Assembly: GCA_041548485.1 (NCBI GenBank)
Contig: JBFESP010000002.1
Span: forward strand, 10,632 to 74,631
Source: Thermoplasmata archaeon
GTDB lineage: Archaea > Thermoplasmatota > Thermoplasmata > UBA10834
Reading direction: 5' to 3'
DNA length: 64,000 nt
Shown here: in pieces, positions 55,466 to 63,459 of the stretch
Layout of the letters: every line of letters begins with the position of its first letter
Numbering within the stretch: position 1 is the first letter of the stretch
Made by a program: the position numbers and the translations under genes
Notes under the pieces: model-generated
What the model was told of the DNA's origin: nothing
What the model saw: only the letters and a program-made list of their open reading frames with translations
Database searches by the model: none

Positions 55466-55541
55466 TGGTGGGCCCGTCGCGATTTGAACGCGAGTTACCA
55501 GCACCCCAAGCTGGAAGGATACCAAGCTACCCCACGGGCCC
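55466..55541 (-). tRNA. tRNA-Pro (anticodon GGG), with encoded 3' CCA
   Basis: Reverse complement GGGCCCGTGGGGTAGC...CCAGC-TTGGGGT-GCTGG...TCGCGTTCAAATCGCGA-CGGGCCC-A-CCA. Immediately downstream of rpoN on the same strand. Confidence 0.85.
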
Positions 55542-58771: not shown

Positions 58772-60007
58772 TCAGGAGTCCTTCGACTCATCCCCACCTG
58801 GGATGTCATCGGGACGGCGAGCCTTCCGCCTCATCCTACGTGCGATGAATATCAGAGAGACCAGAGCGACGAATCCACACACCACGACGAAGGCGATGAT
58901 ATGTTCCTGGATCCAGTCTCTTACGCTTCCGATGAATCCGGATTCATAGATTCCCAACGTCGAGCCATGAGAAACCATGGTCGTACGGTTGTCCACTGGA
59001 AGAATGGTGTGCAACACCATTCCTGCACCAGTAGTGAAGTAGGATGAGTCGACGAGAGCGGAAGTACCGGAGACCACCCCATCCATCATAGCCTCGGTCT
59101 CCCAGAAGTAGAATGCCTGGACGACACCGTCTTCCTTCGCGAACCGGGTCTTCTGCACCAAGTCCGATGTCTCCCTGAACTCATGGGAGTAGTTCTCCTC
59201 CATCTCCCTTTCGTCCACCAGGGCGGAGACCTCCGTCGTTGCCGTGCCGCCGATCGGTGAATCCTCCACCAACTGGAACATATTCGTTGAGCCGCCACCC
59301 TGGAGCATCTGCTCGAGCACGACACCATCAACATCGACATGGTCGTTCAGCCTCAATGTGAAATTCATCCTCATCTGCGTCTTGCCGTCGATGATGTAGG
59401 TTCCACCAGGGCTCTCGCAAACCACAGACTCCTCGGCAAGGAAGAACCAGAACGACAGCAATGCCCAATCAGGAACCACGAGAGTCTCGTTCTCGCCGAC
59501 GACATAGGCGTGGACGGAGGCGTTCATGCCGACAACGACATACTGGCCATACTGACTGCTGTGGCCTTGCTCGGGCGTCGAGAGGTTCCAGTCCACGTGG
59601 TTCGAATCAAGGAAGACGGTGAACTCTGCCTCCGGCGGGTCGAAAATGCCATCTCCGTCTGTGTCGTTGAACAGGTACATCCTGGGGCACCCCACCTCGA
59701 ATGTCGGGCTGAAGGGGTCGAGTTCATGCCTGAATATCACCCTGGGCCAGTCGCTAGTGATAGCCACGCTGAAATTCCCCGAGAGCAGGTTGATCTTATG
59801 TGGAAGGTCTATGCTGACGTACAGCTCGTAATCATCAGAATCGGCGCCGCTGGAGACCATGGTCGAAGTGACCAGCATGGCGAGGCCAAGCGAGGCAGCG
59901 AGAATCCTCTTCGGAGCTGCAGCAGCCACCGTTCTTCCTCGGACGACCACAAGACGCACGTGGGGAAAAAGTTTCTCATGCAGGGGCGAAGCTGTCGACG
60001 GCCACAC
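58772..60007 (-). CDS. secreted surface protein with an N-terminal signal peptide and a C-terminal transmembrane anchor plus basic tail
   Basis: ILAASLGLAMLVTSTMVSSGA signal-like segment, several N-x-S/T sequons, C-terminal IIAFVVVCGFVALVSLIFIARRMRRKARR anchor. Directly downstream of the JAMM gene on the same strand. Confidence 0.5.
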   Translation of the reverse strand: MWPSTASPLHEKLFPHVRLVVVRGRTVAAAAPKRILAASLGLAMLVTSTMVSSGADSDDYELYVSIDLPHKINLLSGNFSVAITSDWPRVIFRHELDPFSPTFEVGCPRMYLFNDTDGDGIFDPPEAEFTVFLDSNHVDWNLSTPEQGHSSQYGQYVVVGMNASVHAYVVGENETLVVPDWALLSFWFFLAEESVVCESPGGTYIIDGKTQMRMNFTLRLNDHVDVDGVVLEQMLQGGGSTNMFQLVEDSPIGGTATTEVSALVDEREMEENYSHEFRETSDLVQKTRFAKEDGVVQAFYFWETEAMMDGVVSGTSALVDSSYFTTGAGMVLHTILPVDNRTTMVSHGSTLGIYESGFIGSVRDWIQEHIIAFVVVCGFVALVSLIFIARRMRRKARRPDDIPGGDESKDS

Positions 60008-60023
60008 GAGGGGGATGATGCCT

Positions 60024-60647
60024 TCAGCCTTGCGTGCTAGCCCTGAGACGCCTCAACTTCGGCCCGCCCTCAGAGACGAGCGCAAACGGCACTTCGGCGT
60101 ATCCACCCTCCGAGAGTTTGAAGACCTTGACCTCCCTGTTGACTGGATCGACCACCAGAGCACAGTGATAAGGCTGGTCGAAAAGGGTTCTCTGGGTACG
60201 CAGATCGGTCCGGGAGAGGAAACATGTGTGTCCGGGATGGGAATGGTACCATCCGACTATGACGTAGTCGAATCCCGCACCGTCGAGTTCCTTGAAGAGC
60301 CCTGGCAACGCGTCCGGATCGAACCTGACCTTAGCCGGCGTATTCTCTAGGTCGGTCGTCCCGATGTTCATGACCACGGCATAGGCTTTCCCCCTCCATA
60401 CACTCACCTCGCCCAGCAGTAGCCCCATGACTTCTAGGCGGTCCGGGGCGGCCTTGACCGCCTGGTGCCGTATTCTGCTCTCAGCCAGCGTCGAAATGTA
60501 CAAATCGAACGCCTCTCCGGACCTTGACATCTCCTCGTACAAGCCAATCGACTCCTCGGATAGCCAATCATGTGGACGAGGGGCCACTGGTGGAGCGCGT
60601 TCAGGGACATCCCTCCTGCTCTCTCCAACGACTTTAGGCCTGGCCAT
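60024..60647 (-). CDS. JAMM/MPN+ metalloisopeptidase (Rpn11/HvJAMM-like deubiquitinase/desampylase)
   Basis: EVMGLLLGE (conserved Glu), VGWYHSHPGHTCFLSRTDL (H-x-H-x7-S-x2-D JAMM zinc motif). Confidence 0.85.
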   Translation of the reverse strand: MARPKVVGESRRDVPERAPPVAPRPHDWLSEESIGLYEEMSRSGEAFDLYISTLAESRIRHQAVKAAPDRLEVMGLLLGEVSVWRGKAYAVVMNIGTTDLENTPAKVRFDPDALPGLFKELDGAGFDYVIVGWYHSHPGHTCFLSRTDLRTQRTLFDQPYHCALVVDPVNREVKVFKLSEGGYAEVPFALVSEGGPKLRRLRASTQG

Positions 60648-61161
60648 TCATCTCACCGATGACCCTGATGCGCCTATCGGACTGGTCGACCGATACGGGG
60701 GGTGTGTACGCGCTGCGGTTGAAGTATTCGGCCGCTCTCGTGCATGTGTCGCTGCCAAAAGGGTTGGCGGGATTCGGATTCACGAGGAGCCACTCGATCC
60801 CTCTCACGAAGGCGAGAAGCGTCGAGCTGAAGTCCCAGTTCTCAAGAAGCTTCGTACAGACGTAACCGCCGTCCTCCGGCGGCATTATGTTCGGATGGAA
60901 TATAGCCGTGCGCCACTTCACGATGGGCTTCTCTGCGGGGTACTCATCGGTGATCAAGACCGCCATCCGGTGGACGAACCGATGAACCACCTTTCCGTCT
61001 TCCCAGCACGGACCCGGTACACGCAGGAACGTCACGTTGATGAGTATCGGGAATGAGGAGAGCCAGGAGTCAGATACCGATATGTGGTGTCTCAGCTCCC
61101 GCTGGCATATCTCTACCTCGTTCTTCAGCCTGATCCGCAGAACGTCCTTTGGGAGGGCCAT
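60634..61161 (-). CDS. UBC-fold ubiquitin-conjugating enzyme (E2)-like protein
   Basis: AIFHPNIMPPEDGGYVCTKLLENWDFSSTLLAFVRGIEWLLVNPNPANPFG reproduces the E2 active-site signature: HPN, catalytic Cys 10 residues later, W, and the LL..PNP..P motif. Confidence 0.85.
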   Translation of the reverse strand: MALPKDVLRIRLKNEVEICQRELRHHISVSDSWLSSFPILINVTFLRVPGPCWEDGKVVHRFVHRMAVLITDEYPAEKPIVKWRTAIFHPNIMPPEDGGYVCTKLLENWDFSSTLLAFVRGIEWLLVNPNPANPFGSDTCTRAAEYFNRSAYTPPVSVDQSDRRIRVIGEMNGQA

Positions 61162-61166
61162 CTTGA

Positions 61167-61355
61167 CTATCCGCCCTCGGGGTCGGGAATGAGCTCCAGC
61201 GTGTCGTCTTCCCGGACACCTGCATCCTTCAGGGCGGTGCTGCCCCTGAGCACCTTCTTCCCTTTGCGAACCACATACGCGCCCATATCCTTGTTCCAGA
61301 AGGTGGCTGCGCTCTCGATTATCTCGTCGACCGTGTTCTCGTGATCCAACTCCAT
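61167..61355 (-). CDS. ubiquitin-like small protein (beta-grasp) ending in Gly-Gly followed directly by the stop codon
   Basis: 62-aa ORF MELDHENTV...GKKVLRGSTALKDAGVREDDTLELIPDPEGG*. Its size, C-terminal GG and position between the E1 and E2 genes support the call. Confidence 0.7.
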   Translation of the reverse strand: MELDHENTVDEIIESAATFWNKDMGAYVVRKGKKVLRGSTALKDAGVREDDTLELIPDPEGG

Positions 61356-61466
61356 CTCAACCGTAGCACCTGTCTCGGCGTTCTTGACCTTGATTCGGTA
61401 CGGCAGAAAACCACCAGTGTCTGGACCGCTGAGACGACCTTAATCCTTTCGCCTACGTGTAGTCGC

Positions 61467-62282
61467 TCATCTGGCGTGAACGGGGCATGATGGATCGATG
61501 GGTACCTCGAACTCCTCTGAGACGTTACGCCTTCCATCGTAGTAGAACGCGGTCGAAAGCAACAGATCCTCCCGACCGGATACAAACTTCAACGCTTCAC
61601 GAACCATTACAGCCGATATCACGCTCGTCGTCGTGATCTCGGCAGCCAACCTCGGCTCGTGGAAGACCACATCCGCACCTGTGCAACTGAACCGGATTCC
61701 TGCCACACGCGCGTGTGAGCTGTTCATCCCACACTGAAGGCATGGGCCCTCAGGAGGACTCACAATCGCCACCTTCCCCGAGAGACCATCCATTCCGCCA
61801 TCAATGTATGGTTTGTTGGAGTGGTACGAGTGAGAGTTCACGTGCATCCTCGCGACGATGTTGTCCAGACATCCGAGAACGATATCATGCCTGGTGAAGA
61901 TGTCGGGTGGGGCGCGCTCCACCGGCTCGGTGACAGCCTCTACCTTGAGTCCTTCTCCGATGCGCTCCATGCCCCTTGCTAGCGCTTCCGCCTTGAACCT
62001 CCGGCCCCCCGAATCATTCATGTTGAAGAATAGGCATCGGTTGAGGTTCGAGCCCACCACGCGGTCCATATCCACTATCGTCACTTTCCGAAACCCGGAC
62101 AGTGCAAGGTTCTTGCCGACCTCGTTCCCGAGAGCTCCTGCTCCCACCATGAGCACCTTCGCCCTGAATATCGCGTCCACGTCCAGCCATTCGATCCTTC
62201 GGGACCTGTCGAACCTATCCTCGTCCGTGGCGCCAGGGCGGATGACTTCCTCCATGGCGGGGTAACGAGCGAACTGGCACAA
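61467..62282 (-). CDS. ThiF/MoeB/E1-like ubiquitin-activating enzyme
   Basis: KVLMVGAGALGNEVGKNLALSGFRKVTIVDMDRVVGSNLNR (Rossmann ATP-binding plus the SNLNR motif of E1/ThiF/MoeB), and the C-terminal CLQC...C..C zinc motif region. Confidence 0.85.
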   Translation of the reverse strand: MCQFARYPAMEEVIRPGATDEDRFDRSRRIEWLDVDAIFRAKVLMVGAGALGNEVGKNLALSGFRKVTIVDMDRVVGSNLNRCLFFNMNDSGGRRFKAEALARGMERIGEGLKVEAVTEPVERAPPDIFTRHDIVLGCLDNIVARMHVNSHSYHSNKPYIDGGMDGLSGKVAIVSPPEGPCLQCGMNSSHARVAGIRFSCTGADVVFHEPRLAAEITTTSVISAVMVREALKFVSGREDLLLSTAFYYDGRRNVSEEFEVPIDPSCPVHAR

Positions 62283-62292
62283 AAACCTTCAG

Positions 62293-63459
62293 TTAGTTCC
62301 AAACCAGTTTGCCGTCGACCATCAACAGCTTCTCCTTCGCAGGATCCTTTCCAACAACCGCGATCGTCGGCGATTTGACGAGCCCGTCCAGATGGATCAG
62401 CGCGTCTGCGTCGCCATCGTAGTTGCTGCCGACAGCGAAATGGCATGTGCCGTACACCTTCTCATCCTCAAGCATGTTGGCGACTATCCTGGCCTTCCTG
62501 TTCAGGCCGATCCCGAGCTCTCCTATGGCGCTCGAGTTCCTCTCGTACTTCCGAGCCTCTGAGGCTTTGAGCTCTCCCTTGGCCGCCATCTTCCTCGTGT
62601 TGCGTTCGCCTAGCCGTATGGATTTCCTGAGAAGGTCTGCCTCGGATGAGCCGGTGATCCTCTTGGCGAACCCGTCCTCGACGTCGACCACGATTGGCCG
62701 GCGAATCACTATCTCTCCGTCGTTGAGGGCGATCGAACCGTCGAACGCTATCGTGCCGTTGGTGGATCCAAGCGCGGGGGATATGTAGACCTCTCCGGAG
62801 GGGACGTTACCGGCGCTCCCGAGCTTCCTGAAGTCTCCGTCGTCTGCCTTCGGATGCCTCCCCCTAACACCGACCGTTATGTCGGTGCCGGAGGGCGCGG
62901 TCACCCTGATGGCGTATGAGTTCTTGAGCGCCTGAACGACACGTCTGCAATCGGCCCTGAGCACGCCATAATCTATCGGAACCGTCCTGGCGAAGCTGTC
63001 AGGAGTGATGCCGGGGGACCAGAAGGCCCGCATCCGGCCTTCGCCATAGAGCATGTCGAACAAGCTGTCGTAGCTCCGCTTCCCCTTGTACCCGTGCTTG
63101 AGTCCGTGCCGGTCCATACCCATGCGGTCCTTGCTTATCGACACGGTCGCCTGGGGCTCTGCGGAGAGGGCTCTCATCACCTCATCCTCGGTGTAGTCGA
63201 ACTGGCCCTTCTCCTTCTGGAACGCCAGGACTGGCACGGCCTTCGATTCCAGGGCCGCATCAAACAGAGCCATCGCGACATCGCGTGTGCCGGGGTTCGG
63301 GTTGGAGATGATCAGAAACCGATCGTTGCGCTTGATGGCGAGAACATCCTTCATCGCAGCTCGAGCGGCCCTCACCAACGAGCGGGAATACGCCTTCCCA
63401 CCCCCGAAGCCGACAGATTCGGGCATACCCACGTAAAGCCACCCGTCCCTCTTAAGCAT
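62293..63459 (-). CDS. M29-family aminopeptidase (aminopeptidase T / AmpS-like)
   Basis: GTDITVGV, PSGEVYISP, HFAVGSNY, IHLDGLV blocks parallel Thermus aminopeptidase T (GTDLTVGL, PTEEVFTAP, HIAFG, VHVDWMI). Confidence 0.7.
   Translation of the reverse strand: MLKRDGWLYVGMPESVGFGGGKAYSRSLVRAARAAMKDVLAIKRNDRFLIISNPNPGTRDVAMALFDAALESKAVPVLAFQKEKGQFDYTEDEVMRALSAEPQATVSISKDRMGMDRHGLKHGYKGKRSYDSLFDMLYGEGRMRAFWSPGITPDSFARTVPIDYGVLRADCRRVVQALKNSYAIRVTAPSGTDITVGVRGRHPKADDGDFRKLGSAGNVPSGEVYISPALGSTNGTIAFDGSIALNDGEIVIRRPIVVDVEDGFAKRITGSSEADLLRKSIRLGERNTRKMAAKGELKASEARKYERNSSAIGELGIGLNRKARIVANMLEDEKVYGTCHFAVGSNYDGDADALIHLDGLVKSPTIAVVGKDPAKEKLLMVDGKLVWN

Follow-up and report, generated by a model that had tools for sequence, protein, structure and literature searches.

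A predicted ubiquitin-type modifier ending in Gly-Gly and its co-encoded enzymes at a stable locus of a Thermoplasmata archaeon

Can an archaeal ubiquitin-like protein (Ubl) be encoded in its mature form, with the stop codon directly behind the terminal Gly-Gly, and what kind of system would such a protein serve? The question is raised by a short gene on the minus strand of the 64-kb stretch of Thermoplasmata archaeon contig JBFESP010000002.1 analysed here (the window), which is co-encoded with an E1-like adenylating enzyme, an E2 and an Rpn11-like JAMM metalloprotease. An earlier note on this DNA had placed the gene at 61167..61355. In our analysis it most likely spans 61167..61406 (minus strand), i.e., 79 codons plus TAG with the product (M/L)PYRIKVKNAETGATVEMELDHENTVDEIIESAATFWNKDMGAYVVRKGKKVLRGSTALKDAGVREDDTLELIPDPEGG, and starts at a CUG. 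We consider it probable that the product is a 79-residue ubiquitin-type modifier and that E1, Ubl, E2 and JAMM form a four-gene, E3-less cassette that is vertically inherited in Thermoplasmata.

The 3' end of the open reading frame (ORF) reads ATT CCC GAC CCC GAG GGC GGA TAG, i.e., I-P-D-P-E-G-G-stop, with the codons of Gly78 and Gly79 at 61175..61170 and TAG at 61169..61167 (together 61167..61175, minus strand). The reading of the minus strand from 61175 to 61167 thus bears out the claim that Gly-Gly stands directly before the stop, and a Ubl encoded in this way needs no C-terminal processing. A 3' extension hidden by an error, which by the earlier note would have refuted the observation, was not found. 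A sequencing or frameshift error at this end is ruled out by two observations: six contigs (L001-L006), each assembled independently from a sequencing run of its own, agree at 100% identity over the entire cluster, and an ending PEGG-stop is present in 60 of 87 related loci, which comprise 80 species-level genomes of Thermoplasmata and Methanomassiliicoccales, the window and the six identical contigs. The same count shows that GG-stop is not a peculiarity of the window gene but the majority state of its family, other relatives having tails or Ubl-E2 fusions. Some Thermoplasmata decode TAG, hence the question of pyrrolysine at the Ubl stop. For the window this is ruled out, as TAG terminates 19 of 62 long ORFs and is thus an ordinary stop, and tRNA-Pyl is absent from the 64 kb. 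Between the Ubl stop and the ATG of the E2 gene at 61161 there are 5 nt.

The ORF 61167..61355 itself, translated as MELDHENTVDEIIESAATFWNKDMGAYVVRKGKKVLRGSTALKDAGVREDDTLELIPDPEGG and then TAG, kept its 3' end and lost its 5' end. The earlier note had suspected that the real N-terminus could be shorter than that given by the ATG at 61353..61355 (minus strand); instead it is most likely 17 residues longer, given that homologues have 79 residues and the profile starts upstream of this ATG. Going upstream from ATG 61355, the frame has no stop for 28 codons, up to a TAA at 61442..61440, and this stretch reads ...LPYRIKVKNAETGATVE-M. The match to the Pfam ubiquitin profile opens at profile position 1 on the Ile of RIKVK, 13 codons ahead of the ATG. 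Homologues, of which there are more than 200 with identities of 77-91%, are for the most part exactly 79 residues long and begin MPFRIKVKNAETG; their start, with MPFRIKVK, lies 17 codons before this ATG, and their Met corresponds to a Leu of the window encoded by CTG. This CTG (61404..61406, minus strand) is the non-canonical start codon that we infer, and it aligns with ATG, TTG or GTG of the orthologues.

The codon found at this position argues for initiation. Over the 87 loci it is ATG in 26, TTG in 19, GTG in 6 and CTG in 34, with 2 misaligned exceptions. The 42-species core clade has CTG in 26, TTG in 13, GTG in 2 and ATG in 1, with no other Leu codon, while the internal Leu codons of the same genes are NTG in just 33.5%. 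On a tree of the E2 and JAMM sequences, the start codon has switched at least nine times, each time within NTG. Codons 2-17 show the same variability at positions 1/2/3 (0.12/0.02/0.38) as codons 18-79 (0.10/0.05/0.37), and in the 36 nt upstream of the NTG it is flat at 0.45/0.53/0.44. The turn from a flat to a coding pattern at the NTG indicates that translation begins there or within a codon or two. In 12 of the 28 CTG species, the window included, no ATG, GTG or TTG follows the upstream in-frame stop before the CTG is reached, and in some of these species the stop is just 3-4 codons away.

The CTG is preceded by the Shine-Dalgarno (SD)-like motif GGTGGT (61410..61415, minus strand), which ends 3 nt before it, is invariant in the clade and is replaced at the same place by GGTGAT, GGAGG or GGTGA in distant relatives. 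Across the loci the SD-like motif lies 3-6 nt upstream of the NTG, and the SD-like motifs of the window genes peak at -11 to -9 from the starts. As the spacer between motif and NTG varies by 1 nt among species, GGTGGT is non-coding. Two other starts were considered and rejected. The GTG within GGTGGT is out of frame in the window, and the 1-nt indel in the spacer marks the motif as non-coding; the codon of Ile5 (ATC) reads CTC in 11 species and stands at least 16 nt from the SD.

A different explanation would take the 62-residue ORF at face value, either as the real product or as the remains of a decaying gene that has lost its start and would yield a truncated, probably non-functional fragment from ATG 61355. 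It is indeed called by automatic gene callers in all six near-identical contigs, the protein collection includes truncated entries of 62-69 residues (P0146, P0150), and the window has no canonical start ahead of the codons for the first β-strand. Against this, codons 2-17 are under the same pattern of purifying selection as the rest of the gene in 42 species, and CTG in 26 species without a single non-NTG Leu codon, despite at least nine changes at this codon, is hard to reconcile with a lost start. The SD precedes the CTG and not the ATG; a GGTG does stand 15 nt before the ATG, but it belongs to a variable Gly codon and is not a conserved SD. The ATG encodes Met18, which is invariant as an internal residue in 42 species and lies mid-strand in β2 (residues 15-20) of the structural model described below, in which the 62-residue product would lose β1 and most of β2, i.e., one and a half strands. 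The E1, E2 and JAMM genes, which are still intact, also speak against decay. We therefore regard the short product, real or decaying, as very improbable and return to the gene of 79 codons.

The public calls for the Ubl gene vary (L010-L047; P0001-P0120, P0146, P0150), with products of 62-69, 79, 82-83 or 86-118 residues. Those of 62-69 residues begin at the internal Met18, those of 82-83 at the GTG of the SD, and those of 86-118 at any upstream start. The inconsistency arises because the start is TTG or CTG. With the gene mis-annotated throughout the clade, automated surveys of archaeal ubiquitin systems miss or distort it.

Upstream of the SD, the spacer between the E1 and Ubl genes holds a promoter-like block (61421..61462, minus strand) that is conserved over 42 species. 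It is composed of an element CTACACGTAG (61462..61453), CGAAA resembling the B recognition element (BRE; 61451..61447), the TATA-like GGATTAAGG (61446..61438) and GTCCAG (61426..61421), all on the minus strand, and its 80% consensus over the 42 species is GCTACAnGTAnnCGAAAnCnnT...A......GTCCAG...GGTGGT. The order in the window and in L007-L047 is GCTACAnGTA, CGAAA, a T/A-rich TATA-like box, about 11 nt, GTCCAG, 6-8 nt, GGTGGT and NTG, and the spacer of these loci is conserved beyond expectation for non-coding DNA. The TATA-like box of the window (GGATTAAGG) is weaker than the clade consensus TATAA. From its composition we infer that the block is an archaeal BRE/TATA/initiator promoter, and the short inverted repeat TAC-nn-GTA in front of it could be a candidate site for a regulator. 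An E1-Ubl fusion produced by frameshifting was rejected, as the frames differ, many species have in-frame stops 3-11 codons upstream of the start, and the promoter-like block fills the spacer.

Is the product of the 79 codons a ubiquitin-type protein? An AlphaFold2 model from the family alignment has a β-grasp fold with a mean pLDDT of 79. Its elements β1 (3-9), β2 (15-20), α1 (26-36), β3 (44-47), β4 (50-52) and β5 (69-73), followed by a flexible tail, stand in the β-grasp order β1-β2-α1-β3-β4-β5. A Foldseek search of the PDB placed ubiquitin, SUMO1, NEDD8 and the ubiquitin of Caldiarchaeum (CsUb) on top, with probability 1.00 and TM of 0.76-0.83; CsUb (6fj7) matched with TM 0.81 and 23% identity. 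No ThiS, MoaD or SAMP structure was among the top 50. Model and search together bear out the β-grasp fold of ubiquitin type that had been proposed. A profile search of the PDB with the Ubl reached ubiquitins at E 0.004-0.7.

The earlier note had also described the protein as having few lysines, which does not hold. The full-length Ubl has seven (K6, K8, K39, K48, K50, K51 and K60) in 79 residues, compared with seven in the 76 of ubiquitin, and at six of the seven positions the family alignment shows little or no variation. The list K22, K31, K33, K34 and K43 given before leaves out the conserved K6 and K8, which lie in the N-terminal part that had been missed. In the profile alignment to ubiquitin, G49-K50 corresponds to G47-K48, K8 to K6 and I73 to V70, so that K50 aligns with K48 of ubiquitin. 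Almost all family members keep the tail LELIPDPEGG, and in the window Ubl the terminal Gly-Gly is free for adenylation, as membership of the ubiquitin type requires. Cutting by Glu-C after Glu77 (...PDPE-GG; 61167..61178, minus strand) would leave a Lys-ε-GG remnant equal to the tryptic remnant of ubiquitin, which would make standard diGly proteomics applicable; the trypsin remnant of the Ubl would be 14 residues long because its last Arg is R65.

Of the partner enzymes, the E1-like protein (61467..62282, minus strand; 271 residues) consists of a single ThiF domain (Pfam ThiF, E 1.5e-44, residues 35-268), without a UFD, a second adenylation domain or a rhodanese domain. Its best relatives in the PDB are the adenylation domains of UBA6, UBA3, SAE2 and UBA1 (E ~1e-18), ahead of MoeB and ThiF, and GxGxxG (G47/G49/G52), D140, C181/C184, C200 and C266/H269 are conserved in 63 species. 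The E2 (60634..61161, minus strand; 175 residues) has the UBC fold (Pfam UQ_con, E 2.8e-12); its best PDB matches are the eukaryotic UBE2A/Rad6 and UBC9 (E ~2e-10), with the HPN motif and the catalytic Cys aligned, and H89-P90-N91 and C102 are kept in 76 species. The gene for the Rpn11-like JAMM/MPN+ metalloprotease (60024..60647, minus strand; 207 residues; Pfam JAB and Prok-JAB) overlaps the E2 gene by 14 nt. The best PDB match of this protein is Rpn11 of Caldiarchaeum (6fjv, E 5.6e-13), followed by Rpn11 and CSN5, and its E72, H135-x-H137, S145 and D148 are kept in 68 species. The arrangement of co-encoded Ubl, E1, E2 and Rpn11-like JAMM is conserved in 68-76 species.

These enzymes also bear on the possibility that the main role of the Ubl is sulfur transfer, as a carrier of the ThiS, MoaD or SAMP/Urm1 kind that the E1 would activate to a thiocarboxylate for the thiolation of cofactors or tRNA and that would be conjugated only incidentally. 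GG-stop and a single-domain E1 of MoeB size (271 residues) with zinc ligands of CxxC type are hallmarks of such carriers. Pathways of sulfur transfer have no E2 (PMC10557695), yet here a UBC-fold E2 with HPN and catalytic Cys is present and, together with the Rpn11-like JAMM, co-conserved in 68-76 species, whereas none would be expected. The E1 is also without a rhodanese domain and nearer in sequence to the eukaryotic UBA6, UBA3 and SAE2 than to MoeB and ThiF, and the Ubl model matches ubiquitin, SUMO, NEDD8 and CsUb, with ThiS, MoaD and SAMP absent from the top 50. A role mainly in sulfur transfer thus appears improbable, and we keep to a modifier that is conjugated through the E2.

The distribution of the cassette indicates how it is inherited. 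The genes for an M29 peptidase, E1, Ubl, E2, JAMM and a 411-residue product (ORF411) are co-directional on the minus strand, an order shared by about 40 species. By far the highest conservation in the cluster is that of the Ubl, with 77-99% identity in the core clade; E1 reaches 61-69%, and over most of the clade the values are 52-62% for JAMM and 34-51% for ORF411. In Methanomassiliicoccales, the core of E1, Ubl, E2 and JAMM also has the SIS and AP-endonuclease genes of the window as neighbours, and this shared setting suggests vertical inheritance at a stable locus, not a mobile defence island. The complete cassette of modifier, E1, E2 and Rpn11-like JAMM turns out to be kept stably and passed on vertically in both Thermoplasmata and Methanomassiliicoccales. 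The Ubl is also present in metagenome-assembled genomes (MAGs) at the level of the genus Methanomassiliicoccus and in a rumen enrichment genome. The family is compact, with 73 representatives (50% clustering) at E 1e-3 or better.

This distribution has to be set against the idea that the cassette is an antiviral defence of Bil type, which would attach the Ubl to viral structural proteins while the JAMM keeps up the pool of free Ubl. The components are the same four as in BilABCD, likewise with no E3 (PMC10557695; Hör et al. preprint), and most BilA proteins stop at the terminal Gly while a minority have overhangs of 2-9 residues, which resembles the mixture seen here. Unlike usual defence islands, however, the cassette keeps one stable chromosomal position across class-level diversity, beside ribosomal-protein, SIS and AP-endonuclease genes, and a Ubl that is 77-99% identical among species is the opposite of the usual rapid divergence of defence genes. 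The E1, a single ThiF domain of 271 residues, is not the IAD+AAD+CYS protein of BilD. A PADLOC scan gave no match for the Ubl and E2, for the E1 only weak matches to CBASS-type E1-E2 models, and otherwise only a weak JAB match (E 1e-3), although PADLOC v2.0.0 may predate Bil models. We consider a defence role of this type unlikely, if somewhat less so than the sulfur carrier, and continue with the vertically inherited modification cassette.

Relatives outside the clade of the window vary at the C-terminus: there are GG-stop, GG+1 (H, Q, I, Y, R, N, C or A), GG+3-15 and one GG+62. Relatives with Gly-Gly and one further residue (GGC, GGN, etc.) resemble the last repeat of polyubiquitin genes. 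Two independent Ubl-E2 fusions, P0135 (249 residues) and P0178 (255 residues), have Gly-Gly joined directly to the N-terminus of E2. In both, the Ubl part ends ...PDPTGG and the E2 N-terminus (LPEDLLRERLKNE...) follows. They recall eukaryotic ubiquitin-fusion precursors, and the JAMM would have to release both parts. The tails (GG+1 to GG+15) and fusions of relatives suggest that JAMM-dependent maturation persists in the family and is dispensable in the lineage of the window. A family with mature, GG+1, longer-precursor and Ubl-E2 forms could thus show when maturation by a deubiquitinase (DUB) is needed.

Further architectures with the same Ubl domain are P0131, P0142, P0147 and P0128. Two of the four have a Ubl without Gly-Gly followed by a domain that by eye looks like the FHA type, one has two Ubl domains in tandem and, at its C-terminus, hydrophobic stretches resembling transmembrane segments, and one carries a low-complexity tail of 62 residues after Gly-Gly. 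Two MAGs have two copies of the Ubl cluster each, L061/L062 (CAZSUE01) with GGY and GGR, and L072/L073 (VGTL01) with GGA and GG-stop. In the Methanomassiliicoccales loci L068, L071 and L087-L092, the Ubl stop overlaps the E2 start, either in a shared TGATG or by a GG+5/6 tail that overlaps the E2 start by 14-17 nt. Judged from these overlaps, short tails after Gly-Gly may be by-products of translational coupling rather than selected propeptides.

Put together, the genes suggest the following course. Ubl, E2 and JAMM would be transcribed from their own promoter in the E1-Ubl spacer, and the Ubl would be translated from the SD-led CUG at 61406, for which the comparative evidence speaks. As encoded, the protein would end with a free Gly78-Gly79 carboxylate, with no protease step; the E1 of CsUb directly activates a CsUb-GG that a stop codon has truncated (PMC5654768). 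The single-domain E1 would then adenylate Gly79 and form a thioester, to judge from conservation probably on Cys200. From there the Ubl would pass to Cys102 of the E2, beside the HPN motif, and on to target lysines without a dedicated RING E3, a step for which the analogy is the auto-modification of Caldiarchaeum E1/E2 and Bil. An archaeal E1 and E2 conjugate such a Ub-GG without an E3, at least to themselves (PMC5654768). An Rpn11-like JAMM can cleave both precursors and conjugates (PMC6043591). In the lineage of the window, the JAMM would act as an isopeptidase alone and reverse conjugation, and the proposal that it is needed here only for deconjugation is reasonable; in relatives with GG+1 to GG+15 or Ubl-E2 fusions, the same enzyme would also have to mature the precursor.

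Several points weigh against the cassette as we describe it. The Ubl scores 18.3 bits against PF00240, below the gathering cut-off of 25.4, and is equally weak against YukD (18.9 bits, cut-off 27). With such marginal sequence similarity, its database entries are named "hypothetical protein" or "YukD family". The tail PDPEGG is acidic and proline-rich, unlike LRLRGG of ubiquitin, which makes analogy-based inferences on recognition by E1 and DUB weak. No E3 was found in the cluster or the window, where a regular expression detected no RING-type Cys/His pattern in any frame of the 64 kb, and the selection of targets is left unexplained. As to the start, 16 of the 28 CTG species have an in-frame GTG three codons upstream, within GGTGGT, as a possible alternative. 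The generally recognised archaeal start codons are AUG, GUG and UUG (PMC4705826), and CUG is not an accepted one. Ribosome profiling of Haloferax, on the other hand, found near-cognate codons at about 30% of putative alternative initiation sites (PMC7261190), and beyond these sites no other literature support for an archaeal CUG start was found.

The findings may be carried further, if only tentatively. It is possible, though we would put it well below the cassette itself, that the whole class Thermoplasmata, its methanogenic Methanomassiliicoccales among them, has an undescribed ubiquitylation that is vertically inherited, E3-less and eukaryote-like in its enzymes, regulates host proteins rather than serving defence, and uses a modifier translated deliberately from a weak CUG/UUG start. 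The modifier would be as conserved as ubiquitin, with an invariant acidic PDPEGG tail and a conserved CUG initiation that gene callers have missed. The published surveys covered here place such cassettes in Aigarchaeota, Crenarchaeota, Asgard archaea and a single cell of marine group II. We found no prior description of the system for Thermoplasmata or Methanomassiliicoccales, in an incomplete coverage of the literature that makes an earlier description possible; the sole trace is a note of 2015 on an Rpn11-like protein in Methanomassiliicoccus luminyensis. If true, E2-dependent ubiquitylation would extend outside the TACK and Asgard lineages, and its archaeal form could be tested in vivo because close Methanomassiliicoccus relatives are cultivable.

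The genes next to the cassette are kept less widely. ORF411 (58772..60007, minus strand; 411 residues), directly downstream of JAMM, has no Pfam or PADLOC match. It keeps its place in about 37 species, with identities of 34-82%, and is absent from Methanomassiliicoccales loci, and so it is probably outside the system. Inspection by eye shows a hydrophobic segment at the N-terminus, many N-x-S/T sequons and a C-terminal membrane anchor with a Lys/Arg-rich tail, features that suggest a surface glycoprotein. On the other side, the gene for an M29/NicX-type metallopeptidase (62293..63459, minus strand; Pfam Peptidase_M29) ends about 10 nt before the start of E1; its position is kept in L007-L047 and taken by other genes in Methanomassiliicoccales. 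Downstream of the cluster there is a ribosomal-protein region (Pfam families L18e, L13, S9 and RpoN). An Rfam scan of the window at the gathering threshold returned tRNAs only. A tRNA-Pro (GGG) at 55466..55541 (minus strand) was called by ARAGORN, and Rfam lists just the other three tRNAs of the window.

How does the cassette compare with known systems? That of Caldiarchaeum (CsUb, E1, E2, the small RING-finger E3 srfp and CsRpn11) is likewise archaeal and co-encoded, with a β-grasp modifier and a UBC-type E2, and its JAMM (6fjv) is the closest solved relative of the JAMM of the window. CsUb is an 87-residue precursor cut after G78 by CsRpn11, which removes a propeptide of nine residues (PMC6043591), whereas the window Ubl has no propeptide, and the contrast that the earlier note had drawn with Caldiarchaeum is therefore correct. 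Other differences are the srfp of the Caldiarchaeum and Asgard operons, to which nothing corresponds in the cluster or the 64 kb of the window, the tail (TVGG there, PDPEGG here) and the hosts (Aigarchaeota and Asgard archaea there, Thermoplasmata here). Archaeal E1s of Clusters I and II mostly have a C-terminal Ubl/UFD domain, while that of the window is a bare ThiF of 271 residues; nearest are the UFD-less "Cluster III" operons of archaea and bacteria (PMC5654768), as the E1 of the window is likewise without a UFD.

BilABCD (BilA Ubl, BilB E2, BilC JAMM and BilD E1) shares the four genes and the absence of an E3, and in its family, too, some members stop at the reactive Gly and others have short overhangs that the JAMM removes. 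It is, however, bacterial and serves phage defence, while the cluster of the window is vertically inherited at a housekeeping locus; BilD has IAD, AAD and an inserted CYS domain (PMC10557695) instead of a single ThiF, and Type I BilA has two β-grasp domains. SAMP/UbaA of Haloferax and Urm1/Uba4 are alike in a modifier that ends in Gly-Gly without a propeptide and in a single MoeB-like E1, and in the SAMP system conjugation is undone by a JAMM desampylase. An E2 is missing from SAMP systems, while that of the window, a UBC E2, is conserved in 76 species; SAMPs are ThiS/MoaD-like, while the model of the window Ubl resembles ubiquitin, SUMO and NEDD8, and the E1 of the window scores higher on eukaryotic E1s than on MoeB/ThiF. 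Ubiquitin and NEDD8 share with the Ubl the fold, the length (79 vs. 76 residues), seven lysines each and the terminal Gly-Gly, and differ from it in that the window Ubl is encoded mature, not as a fusion or polyprotein, and is only marginally similar in sequence.

The cassette misses at least one defining feature each of the Caldiarchaeum, Bil and SAMP systems and is therefore filed as a prokaryotic E1-E2-JAMM Ubl conjugation cassette. Ubls encoded in mature form are already known in SAMPs, URM1, ATG12, FAT10 and most BilA, so a mature-encoded Ubl is not new in principle, and the system of the window belongs to a known broad kind. GG-stop adds little alone; the interest of the locus lies in a class-wide, mis-annotated system with a conserved CUG/UUG start.

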